Shown here piece after piece: positions 15,425-42,070 of a DNA stretch of 64,000 bases (positions are counted from its first letter, which is position 1; each line of letters begins with the position of its first letter). The translations under genes and the position numbers were made by a program. The notes under the pieces were generated by a model that was not told where the DNA came from, searched no databases, and saw only the letters and a program-made list of their open reading frames with translations. The stretch spans positions 395,797 to 459,796 of the forward strand of contig JADJEH010000001.1 of the NCBI GenBank assembly GCA_016702305.1. Direction: 5' to 3'. The DNA is from a bacterium. GTDB taxonomy: Bacteria > Electryoneota > RPQS01.

Positions 15425-15455
15425 TTGACAAGTTGATTCTGAATGACTATATTTG
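15425..15455 (+). promoter_or_regulatory. Near-consensus promoter about 350 nt upstream of the giant ORF
   Basis: TTGACA (15425-15430), an exact 17-nt spacer, then TATATTTG (15448-15455), inside a 575-bp AT-richer non-coding region. Confidence 0.55.
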
Positions 15456-15804: not shown

Positions 15805-15891
15805 ATGAGGTCCAAGACTCTTTTTGTGTGGCTGGTGAGTTCCATCAGCTTGATGCTCTGCCTGCTGACGCCCCAAATGGCATCGGCGCAG
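15805..15891 (+). other. Signal peptide of the giant protein
   Basis: MRSK, a hydrophobic core LFVWLVSSISLMLCLL, and A-S-A at the cleavage region. Confidence 0.7.
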
Positions 15892-18800: not shown

Positions 18801-21800
18801 CCTGCTCGGACCGAGCCGCTGCCCGCGCATTGTTGGCCCGATCGAGTTCTGGTACTACGATCCGGATACGGTGTTCTCGCTGGAAGCGGACATCAACGCC
18901 AACTACACCGATATTTTCAATTTCGACAATTTCGGCCCGATGCCTGATTGGAACGCATTCTCCCCGGGTTCGGTTGACTCGGCCGGTGCGTACAATTCGA
19001 TGACCAATCCGGCTCATGATCAGGTCCATGACTCGATCTGGGTGCGTTTGCTGATTGACACCCTGTCCATCACGCAGGCTGACAACTTCGGCGACCCGTT
19101 CGACGATGACGTTTACCATGATACCCTGGTGGTCGAGTTCCGTAATCCGGACAACTCGCGTTCGCGTTACGTGCGCAAGCCGTTGTTCCGCCCGGGTCCG
19201 ACGTGTACGAATTATGACGGCATCCCGCCCTGCCAGGATCCGCCGGACAACACGATCTACGACGGCCGTCTTGAACTGGACGAGCATGTCCAGGCCCTGG
19301 CCGAGTTCCGCTATATGTGGAACGGCACGTGGTTCGTGAATGCCGGTGCTGACAGCCAGATGCTGGTGCCGATCACTGGTCAGGACACAATCATTGTGGC
19401 CGCCTGGACGGTTGACGGCGACTCGATGGTGGATTCGATTTCGGTTGACTCGATCTTCTTCCTGGTCTGCGACACGACGTTTGCGGAGCTGGACGTTGAC
19501 AACGAAAATCCGGAATTCCTCGAATGGACCGGCATTGCGGCCGGCGTTCGCGAAGAAGATACGCATAGCACAGCTACGGTAGATAATATCGGCTGGGACG
19601 GCGATTGCGGTTTCCGCTACGCAGAAGGCGACACCTTCCAGCTCGTTGTGCGTGCCAGTGAACAGGTTCACTACGATTCGTTGGCCTATCCAAATACTGA
19701 CGGCTCCGACTATGGTGTCGGCGGTATCGGTGACTGGATTGAAACGGGTCAATGGCAGATCTCGCTTGTGGATAGCACGGCTGGTCTGCTGATTGAGAAT
19801 CCCGACAATCCGGGTACCTACGTTACGGTCGAATTGCTCTCGGTGACGCCGGATAGTCTGGCCAACAACGAGTGGCAGTACACCTTGGTGGGTACGCTGT
19901 CGAATCTGCCGGTTGATACATTCATCTATAATGCATGTTTCGTGATCCGCGGCGCGTGGGACCAGGGTGGTAACCCGGGTCGCTACAACGAGCCGTCGTT
20001 CAGCGATGCATTTGAAGATGACAGCTTCGAAGATACAACCTTCTGTCTGCATTTGATTCCGTGTGATCCGTGGGCGGCCGGTTGTCCGGACGTCTATGGG
20101 CCGGACAATATCCTGGGTTGGATCGCGCCGGAAGATACGAACATCACGGTTTGCGCGACGATTATCGAAACGTGCGAACTGACGATGTGCACGCCGGGCG
20201 TGCGTGAGGATTCGCTGCGCGTGGTCGAAGGCGACTTCCAGCGTATCACGGACGACCCGAATCCGTGGATTCTCCCGGATTCAGTCGGCGACTGGTTCAT
20301 CTACTATGGTCCGTTCGGCGACAGCCTCGGCTGGGCCCGTATGTACTATTGGCAGTTGCGCGCTGACTCCTCGGATCTGGCCACTATCTGGTGCGACGGC
20401 GACTTCCTCGACTTCGAGATTCGCTTCGTCAGCTGGGAAGGTGTTCGCGATTCGATGACGTTTGACGAATGCGTGCAGGTTGACGTGAACGAGCCGCGCT
20501 GGGTTGAGTGGAATCTGTATGACAGCACGGGCACGATCCTTGATGAATTGGACGGCGCGCTGCCGTGCGCTCAGCCTGACCAGACGATGACCCTGATGGG
20601 TTGCGTGTGGGATAGCGGTGTTGATTGCGAAGACGGTGAAGGTATCGGCGTTGACACGTCCATGATCTGGGCTGACCTGTCCCAGTTGCTGCAAGACGCG
20701 GCCGCTGACTCGGTCGAGCCGGATTGCGTGGTTGTCCAGGGTATCTACACAGGCGTCTATCCGTATGTCGGACCGCCGGTGCAGATTTTCGACAATAGCA
20801 CGTCAACCGCGGAAATTAATGACCCAGATGCTGGTGACATTCTCGATGTCAATGTGACGATCGGCGATCTCCAGCATACCTACGTCGGTGACTTGGCCCT
20901 TATCCTTGAGAGCCCGAATGGAACGCAAGTAACCCTCGTGAACGATGAAGGTGGCGACGGCAATAACTTTGTCGGTGTGATCTTTGATGACGAAGCGGCT
21001 ACTGATATTACGTCCATCAGCGCTTCGGATGATCCGTTTACTGGTTCGTACTATCCGGAAGGTTCGCTCAGTGACTTCGACGGTGAGAATCCCAACGGTG
21101 TTTGGACGCTCTATGTCAATGACGACACTGGTGTGGATGAAGGCTTCCTCAATAGCTGGTCGCTTGAGATCACCTATCAGAACGGACCGGAACTCAAGGT
21201 TCAGGCGTTCTGGACGTTCGTACCCGACTCGCAGTTCTTCTGTATCAATACGGTGGATCCGTGGTTCCGCTTCCATGCGGCCCATGACATCATCGGTCAC
21301 CATGACCGTGAGCTGTACATGCAGGATACGCTGAACTTCTGCAGCGACTGCGTTCCGCCGTACATCTATAATGCCGAAGTCTACTGTGAATGCGACACGT
21401 TGCTCGCCGGTGTGGATCCGGAAGAGGAACAGGGCGACCTGCACTTCTTGAGCACGGGCTCAGATGTCCGCATGGTGGTCAACATCGCCGACGTGGACAG
21501 CGATTCGAGCCTCGGCTTGGCCTACGACTTCATGTGGGCAGACCTGTCGTCCATTGACACGACACTTAGCTGGGAGCAGGGTGCCTGCTTCTGGTCAACT
21601 GAGACCGAAGCTGGTGACACGACCGTCGTGATTTGGGGTGATGTGACTGACTGTGCCGCGCCGGGCTTCTGCGCGGGCAACACGCCGATCGAATTGAACG
21701 CGGTCTATAACAATGGCGAAACGATCTATGTCCGCTTTGCCTTGGCCGACAGTGCCGGCAATGTTGACACCGTGTTGTATGCGGTCGGTGTTTACGACTC

Positions 21801-30800: not shown

Positions 30801-33800
30801 GCCGGTGACCGAAGAGAACACCTGGATCGAAATCAACGCCGGCGAAGACAACCCCGCCACGTTGTGGATCGAGTGGACCGATGGTCTCAACCCGGATGAC
30901 TCGACGCAGACCAATAACATCGTCGAACTCTGGTGCAAGAATATCTGGCACCCGAACCAAGCTGACGCGTGGACGCAGTGCGGCACCATTCCGAGCCCGT
31001 GCAACCCGCATTATGCCGAGCTTGACCTGACCAACATCACTTGCGGCGATTCCCTGCACGTCATTGCGATTGCCCAGGATCGTTGGGAGAACGGTGACCT
31101 TGACGTCGAACGCGTCATGAGCGCCTTTGATGAAGGTCACGCGATTAATATCTACATCTTCGATACGACCCCGCCGTCCTCGATGGTTTGGTCGGTCGGT
31201 CTCACCGAAGAACCGTGGTGTGATGATGACCGCGACCAGGGCGTTAACGGCCTGTGGATCGTGGATCAGCAGACCAACACGGTCAGCGTCGGCGCACTGG
31301 GTGACATTCATGACATCTGGCTGCAGGCCTTCACGACGATCGGTGACGATTGGCCGAGCATCAACGGCGACGTCGAGCGCGTGTACTTCGAGTACAGCTT
31401 CGACGGGACGACGTGGTTTGAAATCGGTGTTGACGAGGAAGACAGCGAACCGTGCGCGTGGGAAGGCGAACAGCCGAACCCGTGGTGGGACGGTGTTGAC
31501 CATGACATCTTCTGGTCTGTGGTCTGGGATGTTTCCGGCATGGCCGGCGACGTCTGGGTCCGCAGCTGGGCGCAGGACGAGTGCGGCAATTCGGAGGAAA
31601 TGGAAAGCTACATCGTGTCGTTCGACGTGATGGCTCCGATGGCCCAAGTCTTCGTCTGGGAAAATGGCGTCAACGTTGATCAGCTGGAAACCTGTGATAA
31701 CTGGACCGAGCCGCAGATTGGCGACAGCGTCGAACGCTTCACCATGCTGACGGTGGGTGCTTGTGCCGATGAAGTCGAAGGCGACGCCTACGGTGCGCAT
31801 TGGTTCATCAAGCGCGCTGAAGATCACCCGCTCGAAATGTGGAGCTGGTGCTACTTCGGCGACGATTCGACCGGTCCGTTCTCGGTGAACAATGTTGACC
31901 TGTGGCACAACGACTGCCCGGCGCCGCAACCCGGCCTGTGGTATGACGTTGCAGTGCTGACAACCGATCAGGCCGGCAACGAGCTGACCTGGACGCAGTT
32001 CCTGAACTACGGTCAGGGCATGACGGTCGAAGAAAAGTGGGCGTGGTTGATGGCCAACGGTTATGTCAAGCGCTTCTATGTTGCTGACACGCAGGCCCCG
32101 ACCGCTCACGACCTGCAGGCCACGCCGGATTGCACGCCTGATTCTTCGGTTATCTTCCTCCACGGCGACATTACGCTGACGGCGGAAGTGGATGACGAAG
32201 ATGTCGAAGCCGTTACGTTTGCCTTCCTCGAAGTCGGTTCGAACGGCCCGTGGACGGTGATCGAACGCGCATCGCGTGAACATGGCATCCAGTCCATCCA
32301 AGGTCCGAACGGCGAGTTTGTACTGGCCGAAGGCACTTGGAATACGGAACTGCTGAATGGTACCTACTGGCTCGGCGCGTTCGCGGAAGACAACTTCGGT
32401 AACATGGACGGTGATCTGTCCATGGGTGCTGAAGGTCGCCCGGCGCAGGCCCTGTGGCAGGTGAACATTGATAACGAAGCTCCGGAAGCCCTGATCGTCG
32501 AAGTCTGGCGTGACGGCGTCCCGGTGACGAATATTGAACGCGGCGCTGAACACACCTTTGTGATCAACGCTTCCGATAACTTCGGTCTGCGTCAGGTCCA
32601 GCTCTACTACCGTGCACAAAACGGTGAACCTGCAGCTCTGGCCCTGATTGACACCGATGGAAACTTCCCGTACAGCTTCAACTGGACGGCGCCGACCACG
32701 ATGGTGGTGACCTGGCAGTACGACTTCCTCGCCGTGGCGACTGACCTCTGCGAATGGACGGACATGTACGATGCCCAGGGCAGCTACCTGGTGGATTGGA
32801 CCGCGACGGTGGTGGATGAAGAGGCTAACCTGTCGATCACCACGATCGGCGGCTACCCGGCCGAAGAAACCCCGCACGTCAACGGTGAAAATGTTTGCAT
32901 CGAAGTGTCGAGCGAGCCGAACCTTGATTACGTTCGCTTCGTCTGGATCCGCGGTGGCGACACTACGGAAATCGAGACGATTCAAAACCCGGTTGGCACG
33001 ATCTACTGGAACCTGTGCGGTTGGGATGTGACGACGATTGACGAAGGTCCTGCGCAGCTGTGCGCGATCGGTTCCGCCGACCTCGGCGGTGACCTGGTCA
33101 CCATGGCCCAAGACTGCCGCAACATCGTCATTGATCACAGTCTGACCTGGACGTTGACGGACAATATGCCGGATTCGCATGGCTTGGTGGGCGGCTACTG
33201 CTCGCTTACCCGACCGCTGGCGATTGACGGTAATCCGGATGACATCTGGGTGCGTTTCAACAACCAGCTTACCGATGCTGGTCTTGACACGGTGTGGTTC
33301 GAATGGAAGAACGCTGCTGATCCGAACGACGATACGTTCTGGTCAGGAATCGGCTACGCCTATCAGGATGCCGGTGTGACAGGCAATTGGATCTACTCGT
33401 GGGATGCCTACGACTACTTCGAAGGTTCCTGCCTTACGATCAGCCTGCGCGCGGTCCTGAGCGACAACGCCGTCCCGACCTCGAACCTTGCCTACGTGCT
33501 GTTTGCTGACAGCGTCCGCGTAGATAACTGCCCGCCGGATGTCCAGTTCACCAACGTGAACGGTGACATGTCACCGGAAGGTACGGTTGTCCCGTGGGGC
33601 GAAATTGTCAACATGGTCGCTACGGCCCAAGACATCTTTGGTAACGGCGGCAACAGTGATGTGGACAGCGTCTGCTTCTACGGCGGCAATACCGTTGACG
33701 AAGTTGACCTGATTTCGTGCGACACGCAAGGCCCGCTGTGGTCGGCGCAAGTGGCGACGACCGATATCGGCCCGAACAACAACTACTACCTCCGTGTGGT

Positions 33801-36800
33801 GGCTTGGGACGAGGCCGGAAACTGCAGCGAACATGCGATCACGATCTATGTGGAAGACTCGCAGTTCCAGCGCGCTTGCATCGTTGGCTTCGACGCCGAC
33901 AATGAATTCGCTTGCAACGACTACCTGTACGCCGTGACCGACGACTGCGATACGAACTGGACCGCTCAGGTGCAGTTCCAGATCTCGCTGAACCAGGGCG
34001 GATCGTGGATCCCGCTGGCTGACGCGGTGAACACCCGTGTTGACCAGTGCAACGAATGGCTCGGTTGGCACCTGTGGCAGATCACCCTCGAATTCGACGA
34101 ATACCCGGCCAATGCATGGTTCCGTGCCGTCGCCTGGGATGAAAGCGGCAACGTGGATCCGAACGCGGCGATCTGGCGTCGTCAAGACGTCACCGTCACG
34201 GAAGAAGTCCAGATCTGGACGCCGGACTGGGTGCGTGTCCCGAGCAACGGTGAACAGCAGCCGTGGGTCCTGACCACGTTGGAAGACTATACCGAAAACT
34301 GCCTGATCGAGGCTGGTGTGGTGTGCATCGAGCCGGAGGCTGGTTCCAGCTTCTACGCCGGTGAACTGCCGCTGAACACCAGACCGTGCCAGCTGGAAGA
34401 CGAAGATGGTCAAATCACGGTCTTCACCTCGAACAAGGTGCAGCAGGGTGATAACATCTTCACGCAGATCACGACCTACTCCATGGATATCCATGAAGCC
34501 AATTACCAGGGTGGTTCGAACGGCACGCTCGTCAGCGAAGACGGCGCCCTCGAAGTGACCATCCCGGCATGGGGCACCGGCTGGGCCGGCTCCCTGTGGT
34601 TCGAGTCGTATCTGCCGTCGCAGTCGCACAGCCTCGTGCCGGCTTACCAGTACTACTACACTCTGATCTCGAACGTTGTGGAAATCCAGAGCGACGACCT
34701 TGACGATCTGGATATCGTCCAGCCCGCGTCGTCCTTCCGTATGCACTTCGACAACAGCCTGCTTCCGGAAAATGCGGAAGAATGGCAGGTGGTCGTGGCC
34801 TACTGGAACTGGGATGATGAAGATGAATCCGGCCAGTACAACGGTATGTGGCAGGAGTGGGGCATCACCTACAACGACCGCGATCTTGAAAACGGCATCG
34901 TTGACTTCCAGTGGACGCCGGATTGGGATGTATCCGATCTGACGAGCGTTTGCCCGGATCGTGCGCGCTTTGCGGTGTTCATCACCTCGATTCGCCCGAT
35001 CAGTGAAAACGTCCATCTGAACAACGGTGGCGACTGCGACCCGTCCTACGACGAATCCGGTCTCAACTACTACAACGGCGTGCCGGTCACTGACTGCAAC
35101 CCGCAGTGGTGGGTGGTCCTCGGCCAGGGCGAATACCCGCCGACGCCGGACCGTGTGGACGTGTGGCTTGATGGTATCCGCATCGTGAACGATGGCGAGC
35201 CGGCGTACACGGAAGGCTGGTACGAAGAGAATCAGTGCGACGGCTATGACGTCTTCATCATCGACTACGACGAAATCACGGGCATCATGGCCGTGTCGTT
35301 CAACCCCGATGCGAATTCGTGCGGCCCGTGGTTCGGTTGCCTGACGCAAGGCACCCACACCATCCAGTACTACCTGGATGACCGCCCGACTAACGTGACG
35401 CCGTTCTACGTGGATCTTACGCCGCCGACCGCGCATACCGAACCGACCTACATTGGTGATGTCAGCATCACGCTGTGGGCCGACCTGGTGGACCGCGAAT
35501 CCGGTATTGATACCGTGAGCGTTTACCTTGACCTCGCCAACTGCGGCGTCGAGAACAGCCAATACGTGCACGAAGTGACAGCTGAAGCCATGACCTTCGA
35601 GCCCATCTATGAAGACGAAGCCCTGATCGGTTACCGCGCCTCTGTGACTGTGCAGTGGGACGGCCTGATTGACAACATCTTCTACGATTGGTACGACGAA
35701 GAGACAGGCTACTACTTCGGTACGGATTGCCCGCTGACGCTGTGCGCTCACTGGCACGTCTACAACAACGTCTGCAACTACAACGATGAGACCCAGGATT
35801 ATCGTTACACGGTGGACATCGTGCCGCCGGTCATCACGCCTGTGTCGCCGATTGGCGCCGCAATTGACGATGACGGCGACGGTACGCCGAACGAAGATCC
35901 GGTGGACTGCTCGAATAATGACGGCGACTTCTTCTGGACCCATGATTGGGGCTGGTCGGATCGCTACGACGAAGATCCGATCAACTTCGCGGCTGACACG
36001 TTCAACTGTGGCGAGCGTCTGCCGATCCAGGGTTCGATCAGCGATTGGGGCCGCTGCTGCTACGGAGCCGCCGGCGTCAACCTGAGTGGTGTCCAGTTCG
36101 TCATTGACGGTGTCGCCTTCACGGCCGCCGACACGACGAATGAAGGCCTGAACTTCTTCATCAACTCGCCTGGCCAGAATGACTTCGTCTTCAACTTCGG
36201 CGGTCCGACCTCCGGTGAAGCCGCGGACATGTTCTACACGCCTGGACCGCACAGTGTCGCGATGTTTGTCCCGGATAACGCGGGTAACATCGGTACGACG
36301 GACGCCCAGTCCATCACGTGGAACTACTACGTGGCCTGCCCGGGACCGGCTGTTGACTTCAACGAAGGTGCCTGTGGTACGTGGTTCAATCCGGAATACG
36401 ATTCGGAGAACCCGGTCGAGTTCAACTTCATCGTGACGACGGTGGCGAGCGCCCCGATCGCGCCGAACGGTATTAGCTACACGGTCTCGACTGTTCCTGA
36501 TGGCATCGTCGTCAGCGGTCCGACCACGGTTGATCCGGCCGGTGAAGACACGGTGGAAGTCGAAGTGATGTTGGACGGTTCGTTCCCGGATGGTCAGACC
36601 GGCTTGGCCGTGACCGTCGAGACGCGTAATATTCACTTCGTTGCCGGCGGCGACAATAACGGTTACAACATGTCGGCCCAGACCTATACGGCAGACGGTT
36701 GCGAGCCGGTTGAGACCGCGCACTTCCCGGCCACTGACGACAGTGTCCAGAATGAAGGCAACGTGGTGGTCGAAGTTCAATACAACGATGATTGCAACGG

Positions 36801-39024
36801 CGTGCTGTTCAACATCGGCGATGGCAACCAGACCCTGACCAAGGGTATGTCCGCCGCGTCGCGTGTAACGGGCAAGGGCAACGTTGCTTCCAAGAATGAA
36901 GCCTCGATCGGCCGCGATGAGCGCGAGACGCTGGACGACAACGGTTCAGGTATCATTACCGACCGCGTGTGGTTCGTCGTCGTCCCGCCGCGTGGCGAGG
37001 TCCTGCGCTACGAAGACGAAGAAGACTTCATCGAACGTACACGCTCCAGCGCCAAGGTCGTCCTTGTGGATCCGATCGCCGGCGTGTGGACTGTGAACGC
37101 GTACGCTGAAGACTGCGTGGGCAACCTGGCCACGTGGACCTGGACATTCCGCGTCCTGAGCACCGGCCCGATCGTTGAGTTCGGCACGGTGGAAGACGGC
37201 AGCTGCCAGTACAATGGCTTCTGGAACCCCGACTTCCCGCTGGACTTCACGGCCACGGTTCAGGAGAACGACGGCGCCAACGTCCGCAACGGCGACATCG
37301 CCGCGCACTTCGTCGGCCTCTATGACAATGACGGTCAGATCACCGAATACGATCTGACGGCGAACGTATCGCTCGACATCAACCCGGCGTACGACAACGG
37401 TAATACGAACCAGACGTTCACGGTGAACGGCACAGCGACCTTCGGTGACTTCGGCGGTCATGGTACCCCGAATGACATCCGCATCGTCCTGACCGCCGGT
37501 GACCAGTACGGCATGGTTACGGAAATCGTGCAGACGTGGGTCGTGGACGAGACGGCCCCGGTGGTTCAGGTCATCAGCCCGCTGGATAGCAGCGTGGTCA
37601 ACGGTGATCTGCCTGTGACGATCAGTGCCCACTTCTTCGACGACGAAGAATTCAGCGCCGTCGGCATGCCGGGCAACGACATGCTGCTCGATAAGAACGT
37701 CACTCCGGCGACGGGCTTCATCGGTACCGGCAACAAGGGTGAGAAGGGCGATAAGGTCAGCACGATCAGCACCACCAAGCTAGACCTTGGCGCCTGGCGT
37801 GATGCGCTGTCCCGCGGCTTCTCGAGCCTTGACGGCAACAGCGGCGTGGATCCGCAGTGTATCGAGATGTTCCTCCACAATCACTCGACGGGTGTTCGCA
37901 CTGAGCTGACGCCGGAATCGGTGATCAATGGCGGCATCATTACCTGGTCTGGCAACCTTGAAGACGGTGCCTACAGCGTCATCCTGACGGTCTGTGACTA
38001 CGTCTGCAACACGAGCAGCAAGGTCTGGAGCTTCCAGGTCGTTGGCTTCGAAGGCTGCCTGAGCGAAATCTACTTCCTCGAACCGTTCCATGTGTCGGCC
38101 ATGCCGCATTGCTTCGAAGCCAGCTTCGAATGTGATCAGGTTGACCGCAGCACGGTGACGATGACGCTGGAAGGTGCCATGCTGGTGGACGACCAGCTTG
38201 TCTGGGCCCCGATCGTGGTGGAAGCGCCGGTCACCTTCAGTGAAGGCGTCGCTTCCTACTGCGCTAACTTTGACCTCACTGGTCTGCAGAGCATCCGCGC
38301 CACGTTGAACGGTTCGTTCAGCGGTGGTGCCCCGATGGCGCCGATCACACAGGTCTATACGGTAGACACCGGTGCCCCGATCTTCACGAATGTTGATCCG
38401 GCTTCCGATCCGGATAACCCGCTGGCCATTGGTGAAGCCCTCAACTTCCGAGTTGACTTTGCTGAAGTCGGTACGGTTGGTCTGGATCCGGAAAGCATCC
38501 GCATCTGGTGGACGACTGAAGATGGTGGCGCGATTGAGGGTACGTCGAACGTCAGCATCGCCGGCAACGGCCTGACGGGCTACGCAACCCTGGCCCTCGG
38601 CCCGCAGACAGCTGGCGTGTACTACCTGCACGCAGACGTGAGCGACCTGGCCGGCAACCGTGCGACCGAGCAGTGGATGTACCGTGTCGGTCACGAGCAG
38701 ATCAATCTTGGTGGCGAAACGTACAACTATCCGAATCCGTTCACGAAGGAAGACGGTCACACGACCTTCGTCCTGCCGATCGAACCGGGTTCCGGTGACG
38801 GTGCGTACGTCAGCATCATGATCTACGACTTCTCGGGCCGCTTCGTCGCGAAGGTGTTCGATGGCGTACTTGCCGATAACAACGCGTCCATTACGTGGGC
38901 CGGTACCAACGACAAGGGCGAAGAAGTCGCCAACGGCGTGTACCTTGCCAACGTTAAGGTCACGGGCGATGGCGTCACCTTGAACAACATCGTGAAGGTC
39001 GCCTACAAAAAGGCGAGCAACTAA
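15805..39024 (+). CDS. Giant secreted surface protein (about 7,739 aa) with T9SS-type C-terminal sorting domain
   Basis: The frame is uninterrupted from 15634 to 39024 (track: 7796 aa). I place the start at ATG 15805 because AGGAG lies 9 nt upstream and the N-terminus MRSKTLFVWLVSSISLMLCLLTPQMASAQ is a signal peptide. Inside are two P-domains, at least 24 D-x-x-x-P module boundaries paired with D-x-A-G-N motifs, D-x-D-x-D-G loops, and a C-terminal Por-tail/FlgD-Ig-like domain. Confidence 0.9.
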   Translation: MRSKTLFVWLVSSISLMLCLLTPQMASAQINVDPEVNALCIEDPALPSNGVVDELTDRLQITVRAAYSDIYCDSVRAGLDPSPPGLPPGLENLGELLPLVPVAIFSCPSGVTDLLYEMTVNVTLGQGLNGAALDSCLVIATLTFFPGGANVDAGDVVGTGVTWLGYDDDGEVAIPTVCLDFGFTFIAPCDIRSGCALINYREGGGIAFDGIVAIGDTVWMDSTVAASIDTMAAGDTLVWDGSALTCDIADVNLFYNDTIIVAECAWENGLVNACHNDTIWLYYVQWDAAGGDDFFDGTVVDSVPCVRPIDNSPPTLDQACIDSCTITQNNYLDNDTIAGCGDVFVIWMSTIQNGFPTRTDPDWNCDGDSVLEDVSLATPWYVDCDTNSQNFDVSWMAVRLRDIVPLDSLFPMNEDSIDLLSLDSVWVSARFGTTANPGSANDLMYIEIPIDTVWWDYVQMCVLEGLIDGDTIYVHSIDDAGNASNASPFGDSVGTLVGCDACLDNVPPDLPGSDIYWSYDGVDNFCNQRFSPYDSALATFYINLSPDSIRWYLDAVDSVYDTTNYLDVLENVYLIGFDVRQIPDDDPDTPTGAPITLLDYFHPMAKPDSINWDWRSPYVPGIDSSACFTWYGKDGPDSLDPDFDFLSDYCPWGMLVGITEARYMDAGGCNAVLGSDHDGSTSILDGYTQLNALYSVVDSCFPTTTITFDLDTLEGPALGLGPDYGSVNDPYLWTNGENYPFLKFKARRFYTQGMIDTCLAEQLCYTVKIDSLYTQGPWPFAADSFYINEDDAINGGSDTRTCRPIEFFFNDINSDTISFEWEFDGPGDTEIPDGLYCLSLELQDNAGNVFVGDTICIWKNGLGPAIDSVAVVNDNLDCTTNFFIGESLCVWIQTDTTATEVLFDFSCILNIDSVAPDQDTVLVTTPYAATNTFKRWYACLLIQPGMVDSSNTDLNDYRINPYEPDCEDAGEYGIISVIAYDSDGNSTEATQDDGTCVIALLGPSRCPRIVGPIEFWYYDPDTVFSLEADINANYTDIFNFDNFGPMPDWNAFSPGSVDSAGAYNSMTNPAHDQVHDSIWVRLLIDTLSITQADNFGDPFDDDVYHDTLVVEFRNPDNSRSRYVRKPLFRPGPTCTNYDGIPPCQDPPDNTIYDGRLELDEHVQALAEFRYMWNGTWFVNAGADSQMLVPITGQDTIIVAAWTVDGDSMVDSISVDSIFFLVCDTTFAELDVDNENPEFLEWTGIAAGVREEDTHSTATVDNIGWDGDCGFRYAEGDTFQLVVRASEQVHYDSLAYPNTDGSDYGVGGIGDWIETGQWQISLVDSTAGLLIENPDNPGTYVTVELLSVTPDSLANNEWQYTLVGTLSNLPVDTFIYNACFVIRGAWDQGGNPGRYNEPSFSDAFEDDSFEDTTFCLHLIPCDPWAAGCPDVYGPDNILGWIAPEDTNITVCATIIETCELTMCTPGVREDSLRVVEGDFQRITDDPNPWILPDSVGDWFIYYGPFGDSLGWARMYYWQLRADSSDLATIWCDGDFLDFEIRFVSWEGVRDSMTFDECVQVDVNEPRWVEWNLYDSTGTILDELDGALPCAQPDQTMTLMGCVWDSGVDCEDGEGIGVDTSMIWADLSQLLQDAAADSVEPDCVVVQGIYTGVYPYVGPPVQIFDNSTSTAEINDPDAGDILDVNVTIGDLQHTYVGDLALILESPNGTQVTLVNDEGGDGNNFVGVIFDDEAATDITSISASDDPFTGSYYPEGSLSDFDGENPNGVWTLYVNDDTGVDEGFLNSWSLEITYQNGPELKVQAFWTFVPDSQFFCINTVDPWFRFHAAHDIIGHHDRELYMQDTLNFCSDCVPPYIYNAEVYCECDTLLAGVDPEEEQGDLHFLSTGSDVRMVVNIADVDSDSSLGLAYDFMWADLSSIDTTLSWEQGACFWSTETEAGDTTVVIWGDVTDCAAPGFCAGNTPIELNAVYNNGETIYVRFALADSAGNVDTVLYAVGVYDSLPPIVDFIYTIGDDSIRGYVSPGDDHIHVFADINGYAADLVSAPEHVWADFSQFQCDSASKSWYDTVYANYVEDLGGGNFRAWWGWYPGSWTGDPFDLTYLIPGDTTSLPWDTLSACESCSTWEIGAEGTYDSLWVYVTDAACNAGQHFNVWEASGCDSTTPGLDSVWVWGNNCEVGWISSTPLDSGHIEVWAWMDTTFNELIDTLMIDSLQVNLIQLGSPRWDHTNWSTPEFFGGWPVYGTDPTPDSTKWEIIEVDGRNRLVGKWLWLTADGMGDCEQVIVPVKSIRQTGLGGSHGYYMDVEYGYARVDTTRPVIYDMRVHSNTTTIAETTWVTPNYPLCVEFWAYDTSCDPEETDHIGFDLTHGEGGPGPWISFQCGGILDSLWTWDTTAFEVTWYNGWNGVDPIDLDSASRADSICIKFTGQPVYDDSCNAIDLDDLEGCVTAYIEDCLSNPAVPVTKTVTTDDRPPMFVNSLPWGDYTIATGFPGDPDINGIDSVLVLQNSNYGLDWDSTMFVYVIVDNAPGDTLMSWEKTYIDFTGFMNDALQYPDSIYYNIDGNHRDSILWVIPLYDDMGGGALFNTNIVSDRYWWHLYLSDSLCNRASFYCMDLDSAVSFTIQNWTSPTTGMLLLCDSNTVAGSDTDFVDMFNMDLWNNEKVSPDEAKENLYKIWYSDDSGFWNWYSHEDVNQTRFFVFVEDTVLQSDDIDNDNDGLFDETGEGVDFYTADLRINEFPQVGHVDSMNVEGVWINYLWFADNFSEGRYDVKLYISDIYGHRDTLACGDFALTFYEDETCPYGTDIYAYDADETDTNLVTWCWNGAFTGSVSPNGFTADDSIFVGDDFDSLVVFLYDPIILDQYARGSGVDFDTTTTVDSTNWNAGLASSVRLLDPNGAEVAFVQVYDTSDGFAYDSKPIYLIDPTGNALEGHPDGEYTINVVALDNMGNSCEYNWTFVLDRTCPDIADFFVTHPGQIVPQADLFTSWDYVELRANVFDSLGVFENVRFDYAFDANRDGEVDAYTYWQTRNIWVSGSSSEDGHPEWPYAAYWNIRNLTWNSEDTLGLPPVNPDSCLNTWFVRVHAWDKFGNYCADTITVHITDDIAPLAYISNVDGDDTPQSALIECFEPNVDTDSLVELRAFDFQGGLYDPLPGDTTFAVFSYSNPETDLYFDSSDPYETTIQVTEDFSLLDVNVVLENLDGPYQGCLYVELESPNGTIVTLMDDQGEWYWEWTEADIVLDDEAFMGMEFYGDEFADNDAYWPYENLSVFDGESSLGTWTLRVWDDCGYSGELGGWGLVLTERPIGGLATYQWFDLAKGMFQFKYFEAPGVYTPGNADPATGWVTIQTPGQDSVTYRQPGSEDFVAMWNIAGLQSHQYNLRFLSADVCDNVDALNTPVITVRIECDTTAPLALICFPTPDLCVTNMHCDTTAWVPVQSTAPIMSDVDSIAYFFVDSLSVPGLGIHQFIGGTNSADSVVSGWAYYHSTAWNTDNLLSGWYWLYAVAYDDAGLYDTDPIWTRVFVDNTAPMVTECWIGDYNSGDMFASIQTVGEGNYFYLRANAEDNIGLDHNCGISGVQFQFLDRFGNWKNLESANDWYEAWGADVYCDWNYGFVYEPSSNGYYELGVYFQDFGNSPLDSVRFRAYAIDNIEGEGWGQNNTQGDANRDCNLDRDLTCGEEICCSAIEIRDALPEGTNLWCFNHAWFQWGLPQYSAPTTPIFDGDKFSVCNYQTPLDTMLFVANVHEDVEDEWLMYFKYWRADGSTDTFDIPNDFTLNPALPRNADGAVVLESTWDSVYVVWTGARAWLDSADAADGLEYARWDFVAYVEDLTGNQEPWWSQNTCFINTFCPPNTPITDVTYVTNDVADPENRVRVTEEVSWQDDVTDTVEVLYNRTTDYGSNDPEALVQFYVDADAIRNCHADSFDVFNVELWQLADNGELEALCDEGELVDFDYFSSFKAWDQFPPDMGTEQYEFGVYFDNSYAPGTYNFAVVVNWVGYDGVELDTLNEGDTDCDGSVEESDFTRIDLVVRIVNVNEPQVVFCYPNYGDVCGAHNTVPLSANDVSDPNYFSGDIDTVWFQRWDGDSWVAVTDAITGRSYDTQPGTATVRFELDEKEVPGMAGWYYNMSGNNTDPVYSWYADRDLFPDVAVYIWELDQFFPMADGGAGFWTADIYLNHGDDACYNYSFVIDANDNNIWENPGTDRWVDDPRNLDWEDQDPIAYDRCSDDQLDSYESYETAFSTLCLCEYVINFNSITVGDGHHEFRTVVGWHDDVAYHVIENPAPGDSLHVFFVDNDEPGATHDIEFDNFWLNGGRCDTEDFAYFVTDIQPVDGDYRLVVEDICAVIYQVSLTSNPQQDSSWRNVYTVYSNDDMGWTEAWPGEWEAYNPLEDDIDNDGDGLVDETYDVQAGDGRGEENTLFWSRSIVTDHCGNTYCTNAESLWVDVSEPRACVELIGGIEPGVNGNDVIIVPDSRDLEIVAVNQDYAGFDPSILGVFQYRTLNPIGPWTNIQADEASNDTTRHDGDTLRATWDLLTYFEETGNDPEGWYQLRVIAIDTVNNTDMCDNDVCYVTIRLNDNQPAARIAIHQIISEGEEVASSCTTDSSYYMQTADDPYCIQAVFAPTNIDTGLASITFQYAEVSGDVVSNWRNIETIYDPINNGLNGDTTQCVYFQPQPEDVGDQEIFWIRAIVEDYNGNDTSDAVVLYIDALPPTGAGTAVTTAEVATACGDRCWLDITPGAAMINMLFDADELSGEFNEDEVWLTAVREDSNYWYNFGAMTRSDDDEWYFDFGGDLCDYWRDRQGDAGLDYGCYIFTVHFTDCQGNEDSVQVSTTCDGQTTNLVCIDCYPAVPEHTDIQSLSFQGYDCVEEDWTTLYDNILDGTTEIGGEQAVSVAGVIPSYEQDIWYMVLYVESEDAGVAATAVDTFWWNPTYNSHEYPGWNISWNLADTTDEGAAMYPSGYYRVWARAHDAICQIEPIEMLDEFWVHVDHAEPVADITEVNGEPVTEENTWIEINAGEDNPATLWIEWTDGLNPDDSTQTNNIVELWCKNIWHPNQADAWTQCGTIPSPCNPHYAELDLTNITCGDSLHVIAIAQDRWENGDLDVERVMSAFDEGHAINIYIFDTTPPSSMVWSVGLTEEPWCDDDRDQGVNGLWIVDQQTNTVSVGALGDIHDIWLQAFTTIGDDWPSINGDVERVYFEYSFDGTTWFEIGVDEEDSEPCAWEGEQPNPWWDGVDHDIFWSVVWDVSGMAGDVWVRSWAQDECGNSEEMESYIVSFDVMAPMAQVFVWENGVNVDQLETCDNWTEPQIGDSVERFTMLTVGACADEVEGDAYGAHWFIKRAEDHPLEMWSWCYFGDDSTGPFSVNNVDLWHNDCPAPQPGLWYDVAVLTTDQAGNELTWTQFLNYGQGMTVEEKWAWLMANGYVKRFYVADTQAPTAHDLQATPDCTPDSSVIFLHGDITLTAEVDDEDVEAVTFAFLEVGSNGPWTVIERASREHGIQSIQGPNGEFVLAEGTWNTELLNGTYWLGAFAEDNFGNMDGDLSMGAEGRPAQALWQVNIDNEAPEALIVEVWRDGVPVTNIERGAEHTFVINASDNFGLRQVQLYYRAQNGEPAALALIDTDGNFPYSFNWTAPTTMVVTWQYDFLAVATDLCEWTDMYDAQGSYLVDWTATVVDEEANLSITTIGGYPAEETPHVNGENVCIEVSSEPNLDYVRFVWIRGGDTTEIETIQNPVGTIYWNLCGWDVTTIDEGPAQLCAIGSADLGGDLVTMAQDCRNIVIDHSLTWTLTDNMPDSHGLVGGYCSLTRPLAIDGNPDDIWVRFNNQLTDAGLDTVWFEWKNAADPNDDTFWSGIGYAYQDAGVTGNWIYSWDAYDYFEGSCLTISLRAVLSDNAVPTSNLAYVLFADSVRVDNCPPDVQFTNVNGDMSPEGTVVPWGEIVNMVATAQDIFGNGGNSDVDSVCFYGGNTVDEVDLISCDTQGPLWSAQVATTDIGPNNNYYLRVVAWDEAGNCSEHAITIYVEDSQFQRACIVGFDADNEFACNDYLYAVTDDCDTNWTAQVQFQISLNQGGSWIPLADAVNTRVDQCNEWLGWHLWQITLEFDEYPANAWFRAVAWDESGNVDPNAAIWRRQDVTVTEEVQIWTPDWVRVPSNGEQQPWVLTTLEDYTENCLIEAGVVCIEPEAGSSFYAGELPLNTRPCQLEDEDGQITVFTSNKVQQGDNIFTQITTYSMDIHEANYQGGSNGTLVSEDGALEVTIPAWGTGWAGSLWFESYLPSQSHSLVPAYQYYYTLISNVVEIQSDDLDDLDIVQPASSFRMHFDNSLLPENAEEWQVVVAYWNWDDEDESGQYNGMWQEWGITYNDRDLENGIVDFQWTPDWDVSDLTSVCPDRARFAVFITSIRPISENVHLNNGGDCDPSYDESGLNYYNGVPVTDCNPQWWVVLGQGEYPPTPDRVDVWLDGIRIVNDGEPAYTEGWYEENQCDGYDVFIIDYDEITGIMAVSFNPDANSCGPWFGCLTQGTHTIQYYLDDRPTNVTPFYVDLTPPTAHTEPTYIGDVSITLWADLVDRESGIDTVSVYLDLANCGVENSQYVHEVTAEAMTFEPIYEDEALIGYRASVTVQWDGLIDNIFYDWYDEETGYYFGTDCPLTLCAHWHVYNNVCNYNDETQDYRYTVDIVPPVITPVSPIGAAIDDDGDGTPNEDPVDCSNNDGDFFWTHDWGWSDRYDEDPINFAADTFNCGERLPIQGSISDWGRCCYGAAGVNLSGVQFVIDGVAFTAADTTNEGLNFFINSPGQNDFVFNFGGPTSGEAADMFYTPGPHSVAMFVPDNAGNIGTTDAQSITWNYYVACPGPAVDFNEGACGTWFNPEYDSENPVEFNFIVTTVASAPIAPNGISYTVSTVPDGIVVSGPTTVDPAGEDTVEVEVMLDGSFPDGQTGLAVTVETRNIHFVAGGDNNGYNMSAQTYTADGCEPVETAHFPATDDSVQNEGNVVVEVQYNDDCNGVLFNIGDGNQTLTKGMSAASRVTGKGNVASKNEASIGRDERETLDDNGSGIITDRVWFVVVPPRGEVLRYEDEEDFIERTRSSAKVVLVDPIAGVWTVNAYAEDCVGNLATWTWTFRVLSTGPIVEFGTVEDGSCQYNGFWNPDFPLDFTATVQENDGANVRNGDIAAHFVGLYDNDGQITEYDLTANVSLDINPAYDNGNTNQTFTVNGTATFGDFGGHGTPNDIRIVLTAGDQYGMVTEIVQTWVVDETAPVVQVISPLDSSVVNGDLPVTISAHFFDDEEFSAVGMPGNDMLLDKNVTPATGFIGTGNKGEKGDKVSTISTTKLDLGAWRDALSRGFSSLDGNSGVDPQCIEMFLHNHSTGVRTELTPESVINGGIITWSGNLEDGAYSVILTVCDYVCNTSSKVWSFQVVGFEGCLSEIYFLEPFHVSAMPHCFEASFECDQVDRSTVTMTLEGAMLVDDQLVWAPIVVEAPVTFSEGVASYCANFDLTGLQSIRATLNGSFSGGAPMAPITQVYTVDTGAPIFTNVDPASDPDNPLAIGEALNFRVDFAEVGTVGLDPESIRIWWTTEDGGAIEGTSNVSIAGNGLTGYATLALGPQTAGVYYLHADVSDLAGNRATEQWMYRVGHEQINLGGETYNYPNPFTKEDGHTTFVLPIEPGSGDGAYVSIMIYDFSGRFVAKVFDGVLADNNASITWAGTNDKGEEVANGVYLANVKVTGDGVTLNNIVKVAYKKASN
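20782..21180 (+). other. Proprotein-convertase P-domain 1 (no adjacent subtilase domain)
   Basis: ILDVNVTIGDLQHTYVGDLALILESPNGTQVTLVNDEGG...FDGENPNGVWTLYVNDDTGVDEGFLNSWSLEITY follows the PF01483 pattern as I remember it. Confidence 0.75.
23914..23964 (+). other. Acidic D-x-D-x-D-G calcium-loop-like motif 1
   Basis: DDIDNDNDGLFDETGEG. Confidence 0.5.
25327..25701 (+). other. Proprotein-convertase P-domain 2 (divergent)
   Basis: LLDVNVVLENLDGPYQGCLYVELESPNGTIVTLMDDQG...VFDGESSLGTWTLRVWDDCGYSGELGGWGLVLTERP. Confidence 0.65.
28957..29007 (+). other. Acidic D-x-D-x-D-G calcium-loop-like motif 2
   Basis: EDDIDNDGDGLVDETYD, nearly the same as motif 1. Confidence 0.5.
35866..35928 (+). other. Acidic D-x-D-x-D-G calcium-loop-like motif 3
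   Basis: DDDGDGTPNEDPVDCSNNDGD. Confidence 0.45.
38722..39021 (+). other. T9SS C-terminal sorting domain (Por-tail / FlgD-Ig-like beta-sandwich) of the giant protein
   Basis: YNYPNPFTKEDGHTTFVLP...YVSIMIYDFSGRFVAKVF...ITWAGTNDKGEEVANGVYLANVKV...VKVAYKK. Confidence 0.75.
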
Positions 39025-39037: not shown

Positions 39038-39074
39038 GGGTGGGGAAGGGCAACCTTCCCCACCCCTGAGTTTT
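39038..39074 (+). terminator. Strong hairpin after the giant ORF; possibly a leaky terminator or RNA-stabilising element
   Basis: A 12-bp perfect GC-rich stem (gggtggggaagg / ccttccccaccc) with a GCAA loop. The TTTT run starts only 5 nt after the stem, so it is not a textbook terminator. Confidence 0.4.
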
Positions 39075-42025: not shown

Positions 42026-42070
42026 GCGGCCTGCTGGAATACGAAGTCCGAATTTAGAATTTGGATATTG

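Follow-up and report, generated by a model that had tools for sequence, protein, structure and literature searches.

Cargo of the T9SS is known to be handed to LPS when it is of type A and to be held by PorP-like barrels when it is of type B. SprB-SprF of Flavobacterium johnsoniae and PG1035-PorP-PorE of Porphyromonas gingivalis both place a type B cargo on a cognate PorP-like barrel, and PorE links that type of barrel to peptidoglycan (PMC9143113, PMC10202324). PorP-PorE in this way ties its cargo to peptidoglycan, and non-mobile cargo has been postulated to use PorP-PorE-like pairs (PMC9143113). PorU and PorZ of P. gingivalis are also retained; each stays on its barrel (PorV and PorQ) with the CTD in place, an arrangement that gives non-covalent surface anchoring (PMC5562754). 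Cognate PorV-like barrels have been proposed to protect CTDs, the genes being clustered (PMC10202324). Very large proteins have also been described in Omnitrophota and other phyla, in a study that reserved the term 'large' for proteins of >10,000 aa and 'giant' for those of at least 30,000 aa; the giant proteins of that study carry many transmembrane regions and SecA-DEAD-like domains (10.1101/2023.11.21.568195).

We analyzed a 64-kb stretch of DNA (64,000 nucleotides, hereafter the window) that contains a giant gene followed by genes for a PorV/PorQ-family barrel fused to an OmpA-like domain and for an FG-GAP protein. Like SprB (~6,500 aa), the giant protein is a very large predicted T9SS cargo whose gene is clustered with that of a FadL-type 14-strand barrel. 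Like PorP-PorE, the system combines an OmpA_C-like peptidoglycan-binding domain with a wall-tied cargo that is predicted to be non-mobile, and the anchoring set of both includes a beta-propeller, located within PorE in the known system and in the FG-GAP protein here. In contrast to the SprB and PorP systems, the CTD is type A-like (TIGR04183) rather than type B (CHU_C E 0.056), the barrel is of the PorV/PorQ and not the PorP/SprF family, and the OmpA domain forms one protein with the barrel instead of residing on a separate lipoprotein as in PorE. In sequence, the giant protein and SprB are not similar, and the host, an uncultured FCB-group bacterium that is probably Ca. Electryoneota (AABM5-125-24), lies outside Bacteroidota. 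PorU-PorV and PorZ-PorQ share with the locus the most similar CTDs and the order of CTD protein followed by PorV-family barrel; porU and porV are adjacent in the P. gingivalis genome. Unlike PorU and PorZ, the giant protein lacks C25 peptidase and PorZ-like domains and is seven times larger, and unlike the barrel at this locus, which falls below the PorV and PorQ equivalog cut-offs, neither PorV nor PorQ has an OmpA domain. In Gram-negative bacteria, the Ca2+-stiffened fibrillar adhesins of the LapA, SiiE, MpIBP and BapA type are likewise megadalton and very acidic proteins; they consist of beta-sandwich modules with Ca2+-binding motifs, hold one end in the outer membrane and expose a distal ligand-binding region, and are T1SS substrates with RTX or C-terminal signals and near-identical tandem repeats. 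The giant protein differs from these in having a Sec signal and a T9SS CTD and in lacking RTX or near-identical repeats. With the Omnitrophota genes it has in common a very long single ORF from metagenomic data, a product that is mostly beyond annotation by HMMs and a proposed surface or adhesion role, but at 7,739 aa it falls in the bin of 5-10 thousand aa of that study, and none of the domains reported there were found by Pfam. The giant protein is a new sequence family, and the kind of system to which it belongs is already known.

The plus-strand frame is open from 15634 to 39024 (7,796 codons in the ORF listing of the window), and the giant gene occupies 15805..39024 (+), comprising 7,739 codons and a stop codon and encoding a product of 858.8 kDa with a net charge of approximately -1,030. 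Its start codon is the ATG at 15805, which has an AGGAG 9 nt on its 5' side and agrees with the N-terminal start point of six orthologs (P0003, P0004, P0005, P0009, P0010 and P0064). The 575-nt intergenic region 5' of the gene contains a promoter-like site, TTGACA-17-TATATT (15425..15453, +), defined only by 11/12 consensus matches. A first-pass annotation of this DNA had reported a single giant ORF spanning 36% of the window, and both the 7,739-aa length and the start proved correct. The weight it placed on sheer size was overstated, as cargo in the range of 5-7 thousand aa is familiar for the T9SS, SprB being an example; in some phyla a protein length of 5-10 thousand aa is also unexceptional (10.1101/2023.11.21.568195). 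Analysis of composition against the pooled neighbours revealed enrichment of Asp (11.1 vs 6.0%), Trp (3.7 vs 1.4%), Tyr (4.5 vs 2.8%) and Cys (2.5 vs 1.2%) and depletion of Lys (0.7 vs 4.0%) and Arg (2.5 vs 6.4%), as had been judged by eye, and the acidic bias was even along the protein, each 250 aa carrying a net charge of approximately -16 to -45. The earlier statement that the protein is not built from near-identical repeats also held, with self-BLAST recovering only a pair of P-domains. Within the window, codon bias is most pronounced in the giant gene (ENC 36). An origin by horizontal transfer or as part of an island was unsupported, since GC, GC3 and codon bias equal or exceed those of the neighbours and synteny is kept. 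Long antisense ORFs were rejected as genes; they occupy the codon-aligned antisense frame, and the scarcity of TTA, CTA and TCA codons, which are nearly absent, accounts for them.

An open frame of 23 kb cannot arise by chance, and comparison with other genomes revealed orthologs that are collinear along the full length and lie in the same gene order in approximately 15 independent assemblies built from short and long reads. Two orthologs are intact (7,365 and 7,586 aa), and in five loci (L006, L007, L010, L023 and L025) the 10-11 kb upstream flank is one unbroken frame. BLAST and exhaustive HMMER searches together gave ~17 family members; a word-indexed search that returned a single homolog for the N-terminal 1,650 aa was dismissed on this basis as a sensitivity artefact. 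When compared with seven orthologous loci, dN/dS was 0.06-0.3 in every tile of the whole giant gene, which shows that the entire frame is translated and, together with the collinear orthologs, that the gene is real. Cys and Pro are the joint most conserved residue classes of the family (Cys 0.69 vs a mean of 0.49). The protein evolves faster than its neighbours (80% vs 89-95% identity). In Nanopore-based MAGs the ortholog is broken up by frameshifts, and in fragmented orthologs the amino-acid similarity carries on across the frame switches. Most public MAGs contain a truncated or frameshift-split copy, one of them mis-named 'QueC', and the family is therefore systematically under-annotated.

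The giant protein begins with a Sec signal peptide (aa 1-27, MRSKTLFVWLVSSISLMLCLLTPQMASA followed by Q; 15805..15885, +), assigned by eye from its n-, h- and c-regions and an ASA/Q site. This makes the signal peptide proposed by the first-pass annotation plausible, and it is conserved at the N-termini of the orthologs; by eye it is also the only hydrophobic segment of the protein. It is followed by an N-terminal domain that would form the distal tip (aa 28-195; 15886..16389, +), for which AF2 predicted a beta-sandwich with a pLDDT of 90.6 and a pTM of 0.85. No Pfam model matched this domain, and a Foldseek search of its model against PDB returned nothing at E<=1e-3, the highest TM being 0.38. 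The top Foldseek neighbours, all non-significant, were MSCRAMM adhesins and pilins. Because the PDB search was non-significant, the domain was left unassigned to any fold family beyond 'beta-sandwich'.

Two P-domains were identified by PF01483, at aa ~1647-1804 (20743..21216, +) and aa ~3152-3306 (25258..25722, +). The PF01483 matches (79 bits) covered aa ~1650-1790 and ~3155-3296, and the two copies are 37% identical to each other. The first has the proprotein-convertase P-domain fold and no adjacent protease domain, and no Peptidase_S8 match was found anywhere in the giant protein, so that the P-domains stand alone and the protein does not class as a subtilisin-like proprotein convertase. 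The first P-domain is missing from P0003, P0004, P0005, P0009, P0010, P0064 and P0065, and the second from P0004, P0064 and P0065. The two P-domains noticed at first reading are present, but they are not core features; both are recent, lineage-specific insertions, which the deeper orthologs do not have. Four D-x-D-x-D-G sites were located (aa 2707, 4006, 4387/4389 and 6688), of which three have the form (I)DNDxDGxxDE and are near-invariant across all orthologs, so that the earlier count of three such loops was essentially right. These three are the Ca2+-loop motifs IDNDNDGLFDE (aa ~2705-2718; 23917..23958, +), near-invariant in orthologs, and IDNDGDGLVDE (aa ~4385-4400; 28957..29004, +) and IDDDGDGxxNED (aa ~6686-6700; 35860..35904, +), both from a motif search and ortholog alignment.

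A profile self-scan revealed ~25 very divergent Ig-like units of ~100 aa amid unassigned beta-rich sequence (25726..38703, +). Many of these units close with a D-x-[AFMV]-G-N motif, and the region gave weak Big_7, Big_3_3 and Big_13 matches. It is kept in every family member, including the short variants L005 and L009. One ortholog carries a VWA insertion. More than 90% of the giant protein had no match in Pfam, NCBIfam or PDB, in keeping with the earlier remark that several thousand residues belong to no nameable family; scanning the protein against Pfam as ten ~800-aa tiles at E<=5 brought no additional match, and phmmer against PDB gave nothing meaningful. AF2 modelling of aa 28-1200 from a 7-sequence MSA gave a pLDDT of 37.6, and the Foldseek matches of that model were not meaningful. 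No HemolysinCabind match was present, and the protein therefore does not class as an RTX/T1SS giant repeat adhesin. From its sequence, the giant protein appears to be essentially all-beta, modular, polyanionic and disulfide-rich. With more than 90% of its length devoid of detectable homology and the low AF2 confidence, its description as an all-beta adhesin draws on weak profile signals and composition.

The last 100 aa (aa 7640-7739; 38722..39021, +) form a T9SS type A C-terminal sorting domain, identified by TIGR04183 and by a CTD profile. When these residues were scanned alone, TIGR04183 scored 27.7 bits against a cut-off of 23, and the T9SS/FlgD-Ig tail recognized by the first-pass annotation can accordingly be specified as a type A CTD with an HMM match above cut-off. 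Scanning the whole protein gave borderline scores for this domain (TIGR04183 21.5 vs 23; FlgD_ig 26.4 vs 27) and a match to the PorU C-terminus model at E 1.5e-13. The type A motifs are present, namely a PxP/PNP motif B, a G-x-Y motif D and a C-terminal K-x-x-K motif E, and in the alignment of family CTDs A3, P4, N5, P6, W59, G61, G72 and Y74 are invariant and K92 nearly so. For type B (TIGR04131 / PF13585 CHU_C), the CHU_C model gave E 0.056 and 14 bits against a cut-off of 27, which places the CTD outside that class. A profile of 16 CTDs searched against PDB matched the CTDs of PorU (6za2, 2e-8) and PorZ (5m11, 1.3e-4), which are the closest solved relatives of the giant protein's CTD, ahead of any cleaved CTD in PDB. 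The window contains a second bona fide type A CTD (42195-42575; 35 bits). Given the HMM match of the giant protein's CTD, this second CTD and the PorV/PorQ-family T9SS gene that follows the giant gene, the refuting outcomes named by the first-pass annotation do not apply. None of the T9SS core genes sov/sprA, porK, porL, porM, porN and porU was found within the 64-kb window.

The most informative context of the giant gene is the conserved downstream pair of a PorV::OmpA fusion gene and an FG-GAP gene, which the first-pass annotation had overlooked. The ORF of the fusion opens at 39089, and alignment of orthologs places its likely start at Met15 (39131), which gives the protein its own signal peptide and the gene the coordinates 39131..40576 (+), 65-107 nt downstream of the giant gene. 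A 12-bp G+C-rich hairpin followed by a T-run lies between the two genes (39038..39065, +); by pattern match only, this is a possible attenuator or partial terminator, and co-transcription is therefore not assured. Counted from 39089, the barrel spans aa ~43-313 and the C-terminal OmpA-like peptidoglycan-binding domain aa 392-487. Profile searches matched the barrel to NF033709 (PorV/PorQ family) at 133.5 bits against a cut-off of 90, over profile positions 3-324 of 326, and to PF19572 (PorV) at 28.3 against 27, and matched the OmpA domain to PF00691 at 78.7; no PorP_SprF match was reported for this gene, the PorV/PorQ models being matched instead. The barrel scored below the equivalog cut-offs for PorV (NF033710, 59.6 vs 250), PorQ (NF033711, 74.2 vs 220) and PorV2 (NF052325, 93.3 vs 325) and is therefore a divergent member of the family. 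The named PorV, PorQ and PorV2 equivalogs lack the OmpA fusion. No other PorV-family gene is visible in the window. The third gene of the cassette (40676..42025, +) encodes a secreted FG-GAP protein, an integrin-alpha-like beta-propeller, with PF01839 at 145 bits in four stretches and a signal peptide seen in the sequence; it is kept in L004-L008, L010-L012 and L023-L025 and absent in L009. A terminator-like hairpin, again a pattern match, closes the three-gene cassette (42070..42093, +). Searches of the window for Rfam families and tRNA genes were negative.

In every orthologous locus the barrel gene follows the giant gene, and this includes L005, whose upstream context differs. This pairing extends beyond the family: among the PorV-family barrel loci recovered in the scan, a CTD-bearing gene was located directly upstream on the same strand in 15/15. 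At seven distant loci the gap between CTD gene and barrel gene was approximately -54 to +60 nt, and the upstream protein was often 2,000-3,300 aa or more. The possibility that these upstream proteins are PorU homologs of a porU-porV operon was rejected because they have no C25 domain; Peptidase_C25 (PorU-type) was found in 0/6 scanned CTD proteins of the distant loci and was absent from the giant protein.

Taken together, we favor the reading, at a probability of roughly 60%, that the giant protein is a fibrillar adhesin exported by Sec and the T9SS and held by an uncleaved CTD on a cognate, wall-tied barrel. Export by Sec and then by the T9SS to the cell surface is indicated by the combination of a Sec signal peptide with a type A CTD, by the TIGR04183 match of the CTD scanned alone and by the second type A CTD in the window; the protein would enter the periplasm, fold there and pass through the T9SS translocon. 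Retention of the CTD is predicted from its resemblance to PorU and PorZ and from gene order, and the CTD would stay bound to the PorV/PorQ-family barrel encoded immediately downstream, itself presumably fixed to peptidoglycan through its OmpA-like domain, perhaps with help from the FG-GAP propeller protein. This anchor is supported by a downstream PorV/PorQ-family gene above the family cut-off and with an OmpA domain, by a cassette gene order conserved in differing upstream context, by the pairing of CTD gene and barrel in all 15 loci, and by the fact that the best solved relatives of the CTD, PorU and PorZ, are CTD-retaining proteins. The product would be a non-mobile, cell-wall-anchored fibre of ~65-70 beta-sandwich-sized modules and a few hundred nm in length, which the (I)DNDxDGxxDE loops and the very high Asp content may stiffen by binding Ca2+. 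The tip domain, the Ig-like units and the inserted P-domains (and the VWA domain in one ortholog) could then mediate adhesion to particles, polysaccharide or other cells. An adhesive role is consistent with the Ig-like units and conserved Ca loops, with the VWA insertion in one ortholog, with the non-significant MSCRAMM and pilin neighbours of the tip and with the faster divergence of the protein relative to its neighbours. The borderline CTD scores in the whole-protein scan, the barrel scores below the equivalog cut-offs, the hairpin and T-run between the two genes, the lack of homology along most of the protein and the occurrence of the gene pair in an Elusimicrobia MAG count against the proposal.

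The strongest competing explanation, which we consider unlikely but by no means negligible, is that the giant protein is an ordinary type A cargo from which PorU removes the CTD, leaving the protein covalently joined to anionic LPS or released, and that the barrel is a general PorV shuttle whose gene merely happens to neighbour that of the organism's largest cargo. The CTD is of type A (TIGR04183) and not type B, and in P. gingivalis cleavage and linkage to LPS are the normal fate of type A cargo (PMC5562754, PMC9143113). A polysaccharide/LPS-type biosynthesis cluster downstream of the cassette (42.7-59.9 kb) could supply a glycan anchor, and since the barrel is below the PorV, PorQ and PorV2 equivalog cut-offs and is the single PorV-family gene visible in the window, it could serve the organism as its general PorV shuttle rather than as a dedicated anchor. 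However, diffusion within the outer membrane is required of a general shuttle (PMC5562754), whereas an OmpA fusion tethered to peptidoglycan would be immobile. The distance of the barrel from the PorV equivalog model (59.6 vs 250) also argues against a general shuttle, as does the recurrence of large CTD protein and PorV-like barrel in unrelated lineages with different cargo, and the CTD is nearer to the retained CTDs of PorU and PorZ than to any cleaved CTD in PDB.

It is less probable still that the giant protein is mainly a scaffold, cellulosome- or SGBP-like, that captures or degrades polysaccharide or protein. Such a function would fit its richness in Trp and Tyr and the resemblance of the P-domain fold to a galactose-binding domain. 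The tip domain is also found directly behind the signal peptide in other secreted proteins with Beta_helix, CBM_20 or LTD, and its occurrence in Beta_helix (pectate-lyase-like) and CBM_20 proteins points the same way, as do the many proteolytic enzymes inferred for Ca. Electryoneota (PMC9324843). Against a scaffold, the Pfam scan at E<=5 revealed neither a catalytic domain nor a CBM, cohesin or dockerin along the 7,739 aa, and each Ca loop stands alone, unlike the paired loops of dockerins.

We attach little credence to a third explanation, in which an FlgD-Ig-like domain and a FadL/PorV-like barrel constitute a two-partner display or anchoring system that operates without Sov/PorKLMN in several candidate phyla. 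The CTD profile matches FlgD Ig domains almost as well as PorU, and one of the distant loci with the pairing of CTD protein and PorV-like barrel is that in the Elusimicrobia MAG (L015), a phylum that is not known for the T9SS. Reviews confine the T9SS to Bacteroidota (PMC10202324). These points are outweighed in our assessment by the family CTDs themselves, which match the PorU C-terminal model in 16/16 cases and TIGR04183 (Por_Secre_tail) and PorZ in 14/16 each, by the membership of the barrel in the PorV/PorQ family above cut-off and by the second canonical type A CTD in the window. Moreover, a FadL-type 14-strand barrel cannot, as far as we know, by itself translocate a folded 859-kDa protein. 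Finally, there is next to no chance that the gene is an artefact, whether a product of chimerism or mis-assembly or a pseudogene in decay with its long frame preserved by GC-rich codon usage, as could be supposed from at least one probable indel error in the window (an aspS frameshift), the frameshifted orthologs in Nanopore-based MAGs and a composition that, as the long antisense ORFs show, disfavours stop codons, because this is effectively refuted by orthologs whose frames are intact or unbroken in independent assemblies of short and of long reads, strict collinearity across 7.7 thousand aa, dN/dS of 0.06-0.3 in each tile and conservation of Cys, Trp and the Ca loops.

The anchored fibre that we favor carries a wider proposition, which we put forward tentatively and with some doubt: that the locus represents an undescribed form of T9SS anchoring outside Bacteroidota, in which an unprocessed, megadalton, type A-like cargo is docked on a private PorV-family barrel::OmpA fusion with a propeller partner, that pairs of a large CTD protein and a PorV-like barrel are widespread (Calditrichota, KSB1, Elusimicrobiota and unclassified lineages), and that >7,000 cargo residues, including the tip domain (TM <= 0.38), comprise new folds or families. 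A type A-like CTD on a private PorV-family barrel with its own peptidoglycan-binding domain would add a third arrangement to the two known ones, and the locus lends itself to a direct test of the published proposal that CTDs are shielded from cleavage by cognate barrels. The ~7,000 residues under purifying selection that are invisible to Pfam, NCBIfam and PDB are a compact target for structure determination. The locus carries the T9SS-type logic of cargo and anchor into an uncultured FCB phylum of activated sludge and sediments and, if the wider proposition is true, the pair of CTD protein and PorV-like barrel would be a widespread, unrecognised module of candidate phyla.

The giant gene lies in a plus-strand frame that stays open from 15634 to 39024 (7,796 codons). 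The start chosen by the first-pass annotation, ATG at 15805, was correct: AGGAG precedes it by 9 nt, the N-termini of the orthologs align with it, and it opens on a predicted signal peptide of textbook sequence (MRSKTLFVWLVSSISLMLCLLTPQMASA/Q). The resulting protein (15805-39024) has 7,739 aa and a mass of 858.8 kDa. Its composition is as odd as had been stated by eye, with high D (11.1% vs 6.0% in the pooled neighboring genes), W (3.7% vs 1.4%), Y (4.5% vs 2.8%) and C (2.5% vs 1.2%), and low K (0.7% vs 4.0%) and R (2.5% vs 6.4%); this bias is even over the full length, with a net charge of about -1,030. Self-BLAST likewise bore out the absence of near-identical repeats, the sole clear internal pair being two P-domains with 37% identity. 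Codon bias is stronger in this gene than in any other of the window (ENC 36 vs 39-56), and TTA, CTA and TCA account for only 16 of its 7,739 codons (2.1 per 1000, against 12.4 in the neighbors). Because these codons are so few, long minus-strand ORFs also occur within the gene, at 23455-27951 (1,498 aa), 28198-33180 (1,660 aa) and 33571-36780 (1,069 aa), all three in the codon-aligned antisense frame.

About 15 independent assemblies contain collinear orthologs. N-terminal parts lie behind the same upstream genes (PhoH, YbeY, CorC, DUF6913, MazG, HflX, HTH-cupin, AdoMet decarboxylase, PvlArgDC, SpeE and SpeB) in GCA_020846695.1, GCA_964269355.1 and GCA_018812265.1, and C-terminal parts lie ahead of the same downstream genes in GCA_016721565.1, an ENA contig, seven GTDB representative genomes and three JGI metagenome contigs. 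Among 1.84 billion representative proteins, searched exhaustively with HMMER, there were two intact orthologs (7,365 and 7,586 aa), both ending in the same C-terminal sorting domain (CTD), and at five homologous loci (L006, L007, L010, L023 and L025) the full 10-11 kb upstream flank is a single unbroken frame. In MAGs built from Nanopore data, frame switches break up the ortholog; similarity at the amino-acid level runs on across them, so they are indel errors, not decay. dN/dS was 0.06-0.3 in each tile of the gene against seven loci. An assembly artefact or pseudogene is effectively excluded by the unbroken and intact orthologs, the collinearity and these dN/dS values. Elsewhere in the window the aspartate-tRNA ligase gene (2823-4599) is present as two overlapping ORFs, 2823-3932 and 3883-4599, which match aspS model positions 3-357 and 361-586; the split in this essential gene lies near 3880-3885 at an apparent single-base insertion (gcc-t-gtg) and probably reflects an assembly indel. 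Indel errors are therefore present in the window, and the 23-kb ORF is intact nonetheless. The 4,352-aa truncated ortholog in GCA_018812265.1 (P0003, JAHJDG010000055.1) carries the NCBI name '7-cyano-7-deazaguanine synthase, partial' because its last ~45 aa, at the contig end, resemble QueC; the contig end is probably chimeric and the name misleading.

Against the closest relatives, L025 and L023 (JGI Ga0268298_10000106 and Ga0272412_1000023), compared over window positions 27847-45129, the giant protein showed 80% identity and its neighbors 89-95% (the PorV::OmpA barrel 94.5%, FG-GAP 91%, Ugd 93%, UbiA 89%). The corresponding dN/dS values were 0.06-0.26 and 0.05-0.09; the giant surface protein evolves 2-4 times faster than its neighbors and is still under purifying selection. 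Among distant orthologs, Cys and Pro jointly form the most conserved residue class (0.69 vs 0.49 overall), and the conservation of Cys fits structural disulfides.

More than 90% of the protein's length carries no model, in keeping with the earlier view that thousands of residues belong to no nameable family. The two P-domains were recovered (PF01483, 79 bits), together with weak Pfam matches to Big_7, Big_3_3 and Big_13. Searching ten ~800-aa tiles against Pfam at E<=5 revealed nothing further, and phmmer against all PDB sequences gave no meaningful match. A profile self-scan, based on query-anchored alignments of 5-11 orthologs, revealed a network of ~25 weakly related ~100-aa units, mostly at aa 3300-7650. 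Many of them end in D-x-[AFMV]-G-N, a motif typical of bacterial Ig-like domains. The three D-x-D-x-D-G loops seen at first pass have the form (I)DNDxDGxxDE at aa ~2707, ~4387 and ~6688, with almost no variation in any ortholog; there is also a fourth, weaker site at aa ~4006. Both P-domains are absent in the deeper orthologs P0004, P0064 and P0065, so the sole strongly annotatable modules are recent insertions in an otherwise unannotatable scaffold; P-domain 1 is also absent in P0003, P0005, P0009 and P0010. The 7,365-aa ortholog P0064 carries a von Willebrand factor A-like insertion with a MIDAS-type DxSxS motif, at about window aa 5800, which the giant protein of the window does not have. 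Two loci encode short variants, L005 beginning at ~aa 4236 and L009 lacking ~aa 1420-4777. Domain gain and loss is common in the family (P-domains here, VWA in P0064, big deletions in L005 and L009), and the short variants show the C-terminal ~3,500 aa to be the conserved core.

AlphaFold2 prediction of aa 28-1200 from seven sequences gave nearly all strands at a pLDDT of 37.6, and Foldseek searches with this low-confidence model returned generic beta-sandwich matches only. When the first domain after the signal peptide (aa 28-195, the tip domain) was re-predicted with 17 sequences, a confident beta-sandwich was modeled (pLDDT 90.6, pTM 0.85). Foldseek identified no PDB neighbor of this model at E<=1e-3 (best TM 0.38); the non-significant top matches were ZP-C domains, MSCRAMM adhesins, pilins and an amylase N-domain. 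The same domain stands straight after the signal peptide in other secreted proteins with Beta_helix, CBM_20 or lamin-tail domains, and is therefore a mobile, uncharacterised tip module. Unlike those beta-helix proteins, a lipoprotein-like right-handed beta-helix protein (PF13229) in the window's polysaccharide cluster (44964-46628, plus strand; likely true start near 45141) apparently has no tip domain.

The predicted type IX secretion (T9SS) tail was upheld: the last 100 aa alone pass TIGR04183 (Por_Secre_tail; 27.7 bits, cut-off 23), with FlgD_ig at 26.4 bits on the giant protein (Pfam cut-off 27) and no match to the type B model CHU_C (E 0.056). Among 16 related CTDs, all matched the PorU C-terminal model and 14 each matched Por_Secre_tail and PorZ. 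A profile of the 16 matched the Porphyromonas gingivalis PorU CTD (6za2, E 2e-8), the PorZ CTD (5m11, E 1.3e-4) and FlgD Ig domains; PNP, W-G and G-x-Y are invariant and a C-terminal K nearly so.

The next gene (39131-40576) encodes the barrel and starts 65-107 nt past the giant stop codon, depending on the start codon taken, with a 12-bp G+C hairpin and T-run between. Its barrel part belongs to the PorV/PorQ family (NF033709, 133.5 bits vs 90; Pfam PorV, 28.3 vs 27), reaches none of the PorV, PorQ or PorV2 equivalog cut-offs, and is fused to an OmpA-like peptidoglycan-binding domain (PF00691, 78.7 bits; GHTD...NNPLSQARADAV). The third gene of the cassette (40676-42025) encodes a secreted FG-GAP propeller protein. 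This order holds in every orthologous locus, including L005 with its other upstream context; the FG-GAP gene is absent only in L009. A terminator-like hairpin follows, then an orphan ORF (42195-42575, plus strand, 126 aa), then a polysaccharide biosynthesis cluster. The orphan is little beyond a type A CTD (TIGR04183, 35.1 bits vs 23). It lacks a signal peptide, and the related loci have no ortholog of it; the ORF may be what is left of a decayed cargo gene, and its sequence is independent evidence for type A CTD use by this genome. Directly upstream of the giant gene, a polyamine block (12881-15229; pyruvoyl arginine decarboxylase, spermidine synthase and agmatinase, joined in relatives by AdoMet decarboxylase) is conserved in four genomes (the window and L001-L003).

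At the level of sequence, a Sec signal, a type A T9SS CTD, an adjacent PorV-family barrel with a peptidoglycan-binding domain, synteny and purifying selection are established or strongly indicated. The main rival explanation, which is possible, makes the barrel simply the general PorV shuttle, with a cargo that is cleaved and attached to LPS; a wall-tethered shuttle is hard to square with the shuttle model. We favor retention on the barrel: the giant protein would fold and form disulfides in the periplasm, be exported folded by the T9SS, and keep its CTD docked on the cognate barrel, which the OmpA domain would pin to the cell wall. The outcome would be a fixed fibre of ~65-70 sandwich-sized modules, Ca2+-stiffened and with an adhesive tip. 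PorV and PorQ hold PorU and PorZ, which keep their CTDs (PMC5562754), and cognate PorV-like barrels have been proposed to shield CTDs from cleavage in a review that also describes type B cargo genes clustered with PorP/SprF genes (PMC10202324). PorE (TPR, beta-propeller, CRD, OmpA_C) links PorP to peptidoglycan, SprF binds SprB, and PorP-PorE-like pairs are postulated for non-mobile cargo (PMC9143113). The cassette holds the same functional parts (barrel, propeller and OmpA_C domain), but they are allotted differently and joined to a type A-like CTD.

One syntenic genome is titled 'Calditrichaeota bacterium HK-STAS-AABM5-4', and several others are activated-sludge MAGs from a study reporting four MAGs of AABM5-125-24, which is Ca. 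Electryoneota, a lineage of the FCB superphylum (PMC9324843). A barrel-based genome scan also found distant loci from Calditrichia, KSB1, Elusimicrobia and unclassified MAGs. At all 15 barrel-match loci a gene ending in the same kind of CTD directly precedes the barrel gene on the same strand, with gaps of about -54 to +60 nt at the seven distant loci; two further loci, where the match covered only the OmpA part or else a short piece of the N-terminus, fall outside this set. Many of the upstream CTD proteins reach 2,000-3,300 aa or more, and no PorU-type C25 peptidase domain was found in the six scanned. The OmpA fusion is limited to the giant protein's own clade. At L013-L019 and L021, PorV-family barrel genes without it each directly follow a CTD-bearing gene, mostly large (up to >3,289 aa) and Ig-rich with a FlgD_ig/T9SS-like CTD; one exception is L017 (240 aa), L019 has two barrels in tandem, and the barrel ORF of L018 itself ends in a FlgD_ig-like segment.

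T9SS adhesins of ~6,500 aa are well known. Protein size, called rare at first pass, is no novelty, as 5-10 thousand aa is a routine bin in a giant-gene survey that keeps 'large' for >10,000 aa (10.1101/2023.11.21.568195). New are the sequence family (~17 clusters in a set of 1.84 billion representatives, with no model for >90% of its length), the confidently modeled tip domain without a structural neighbor, and the predicted pairing of a PorV-family::OmpA fusion with type A-like cargo. Also new is the apparent recurrence, outside Bacteroidota, of big CTD proteins paired with private PorV-like barrels, which suggests a widespread module of cargo and private barrel.
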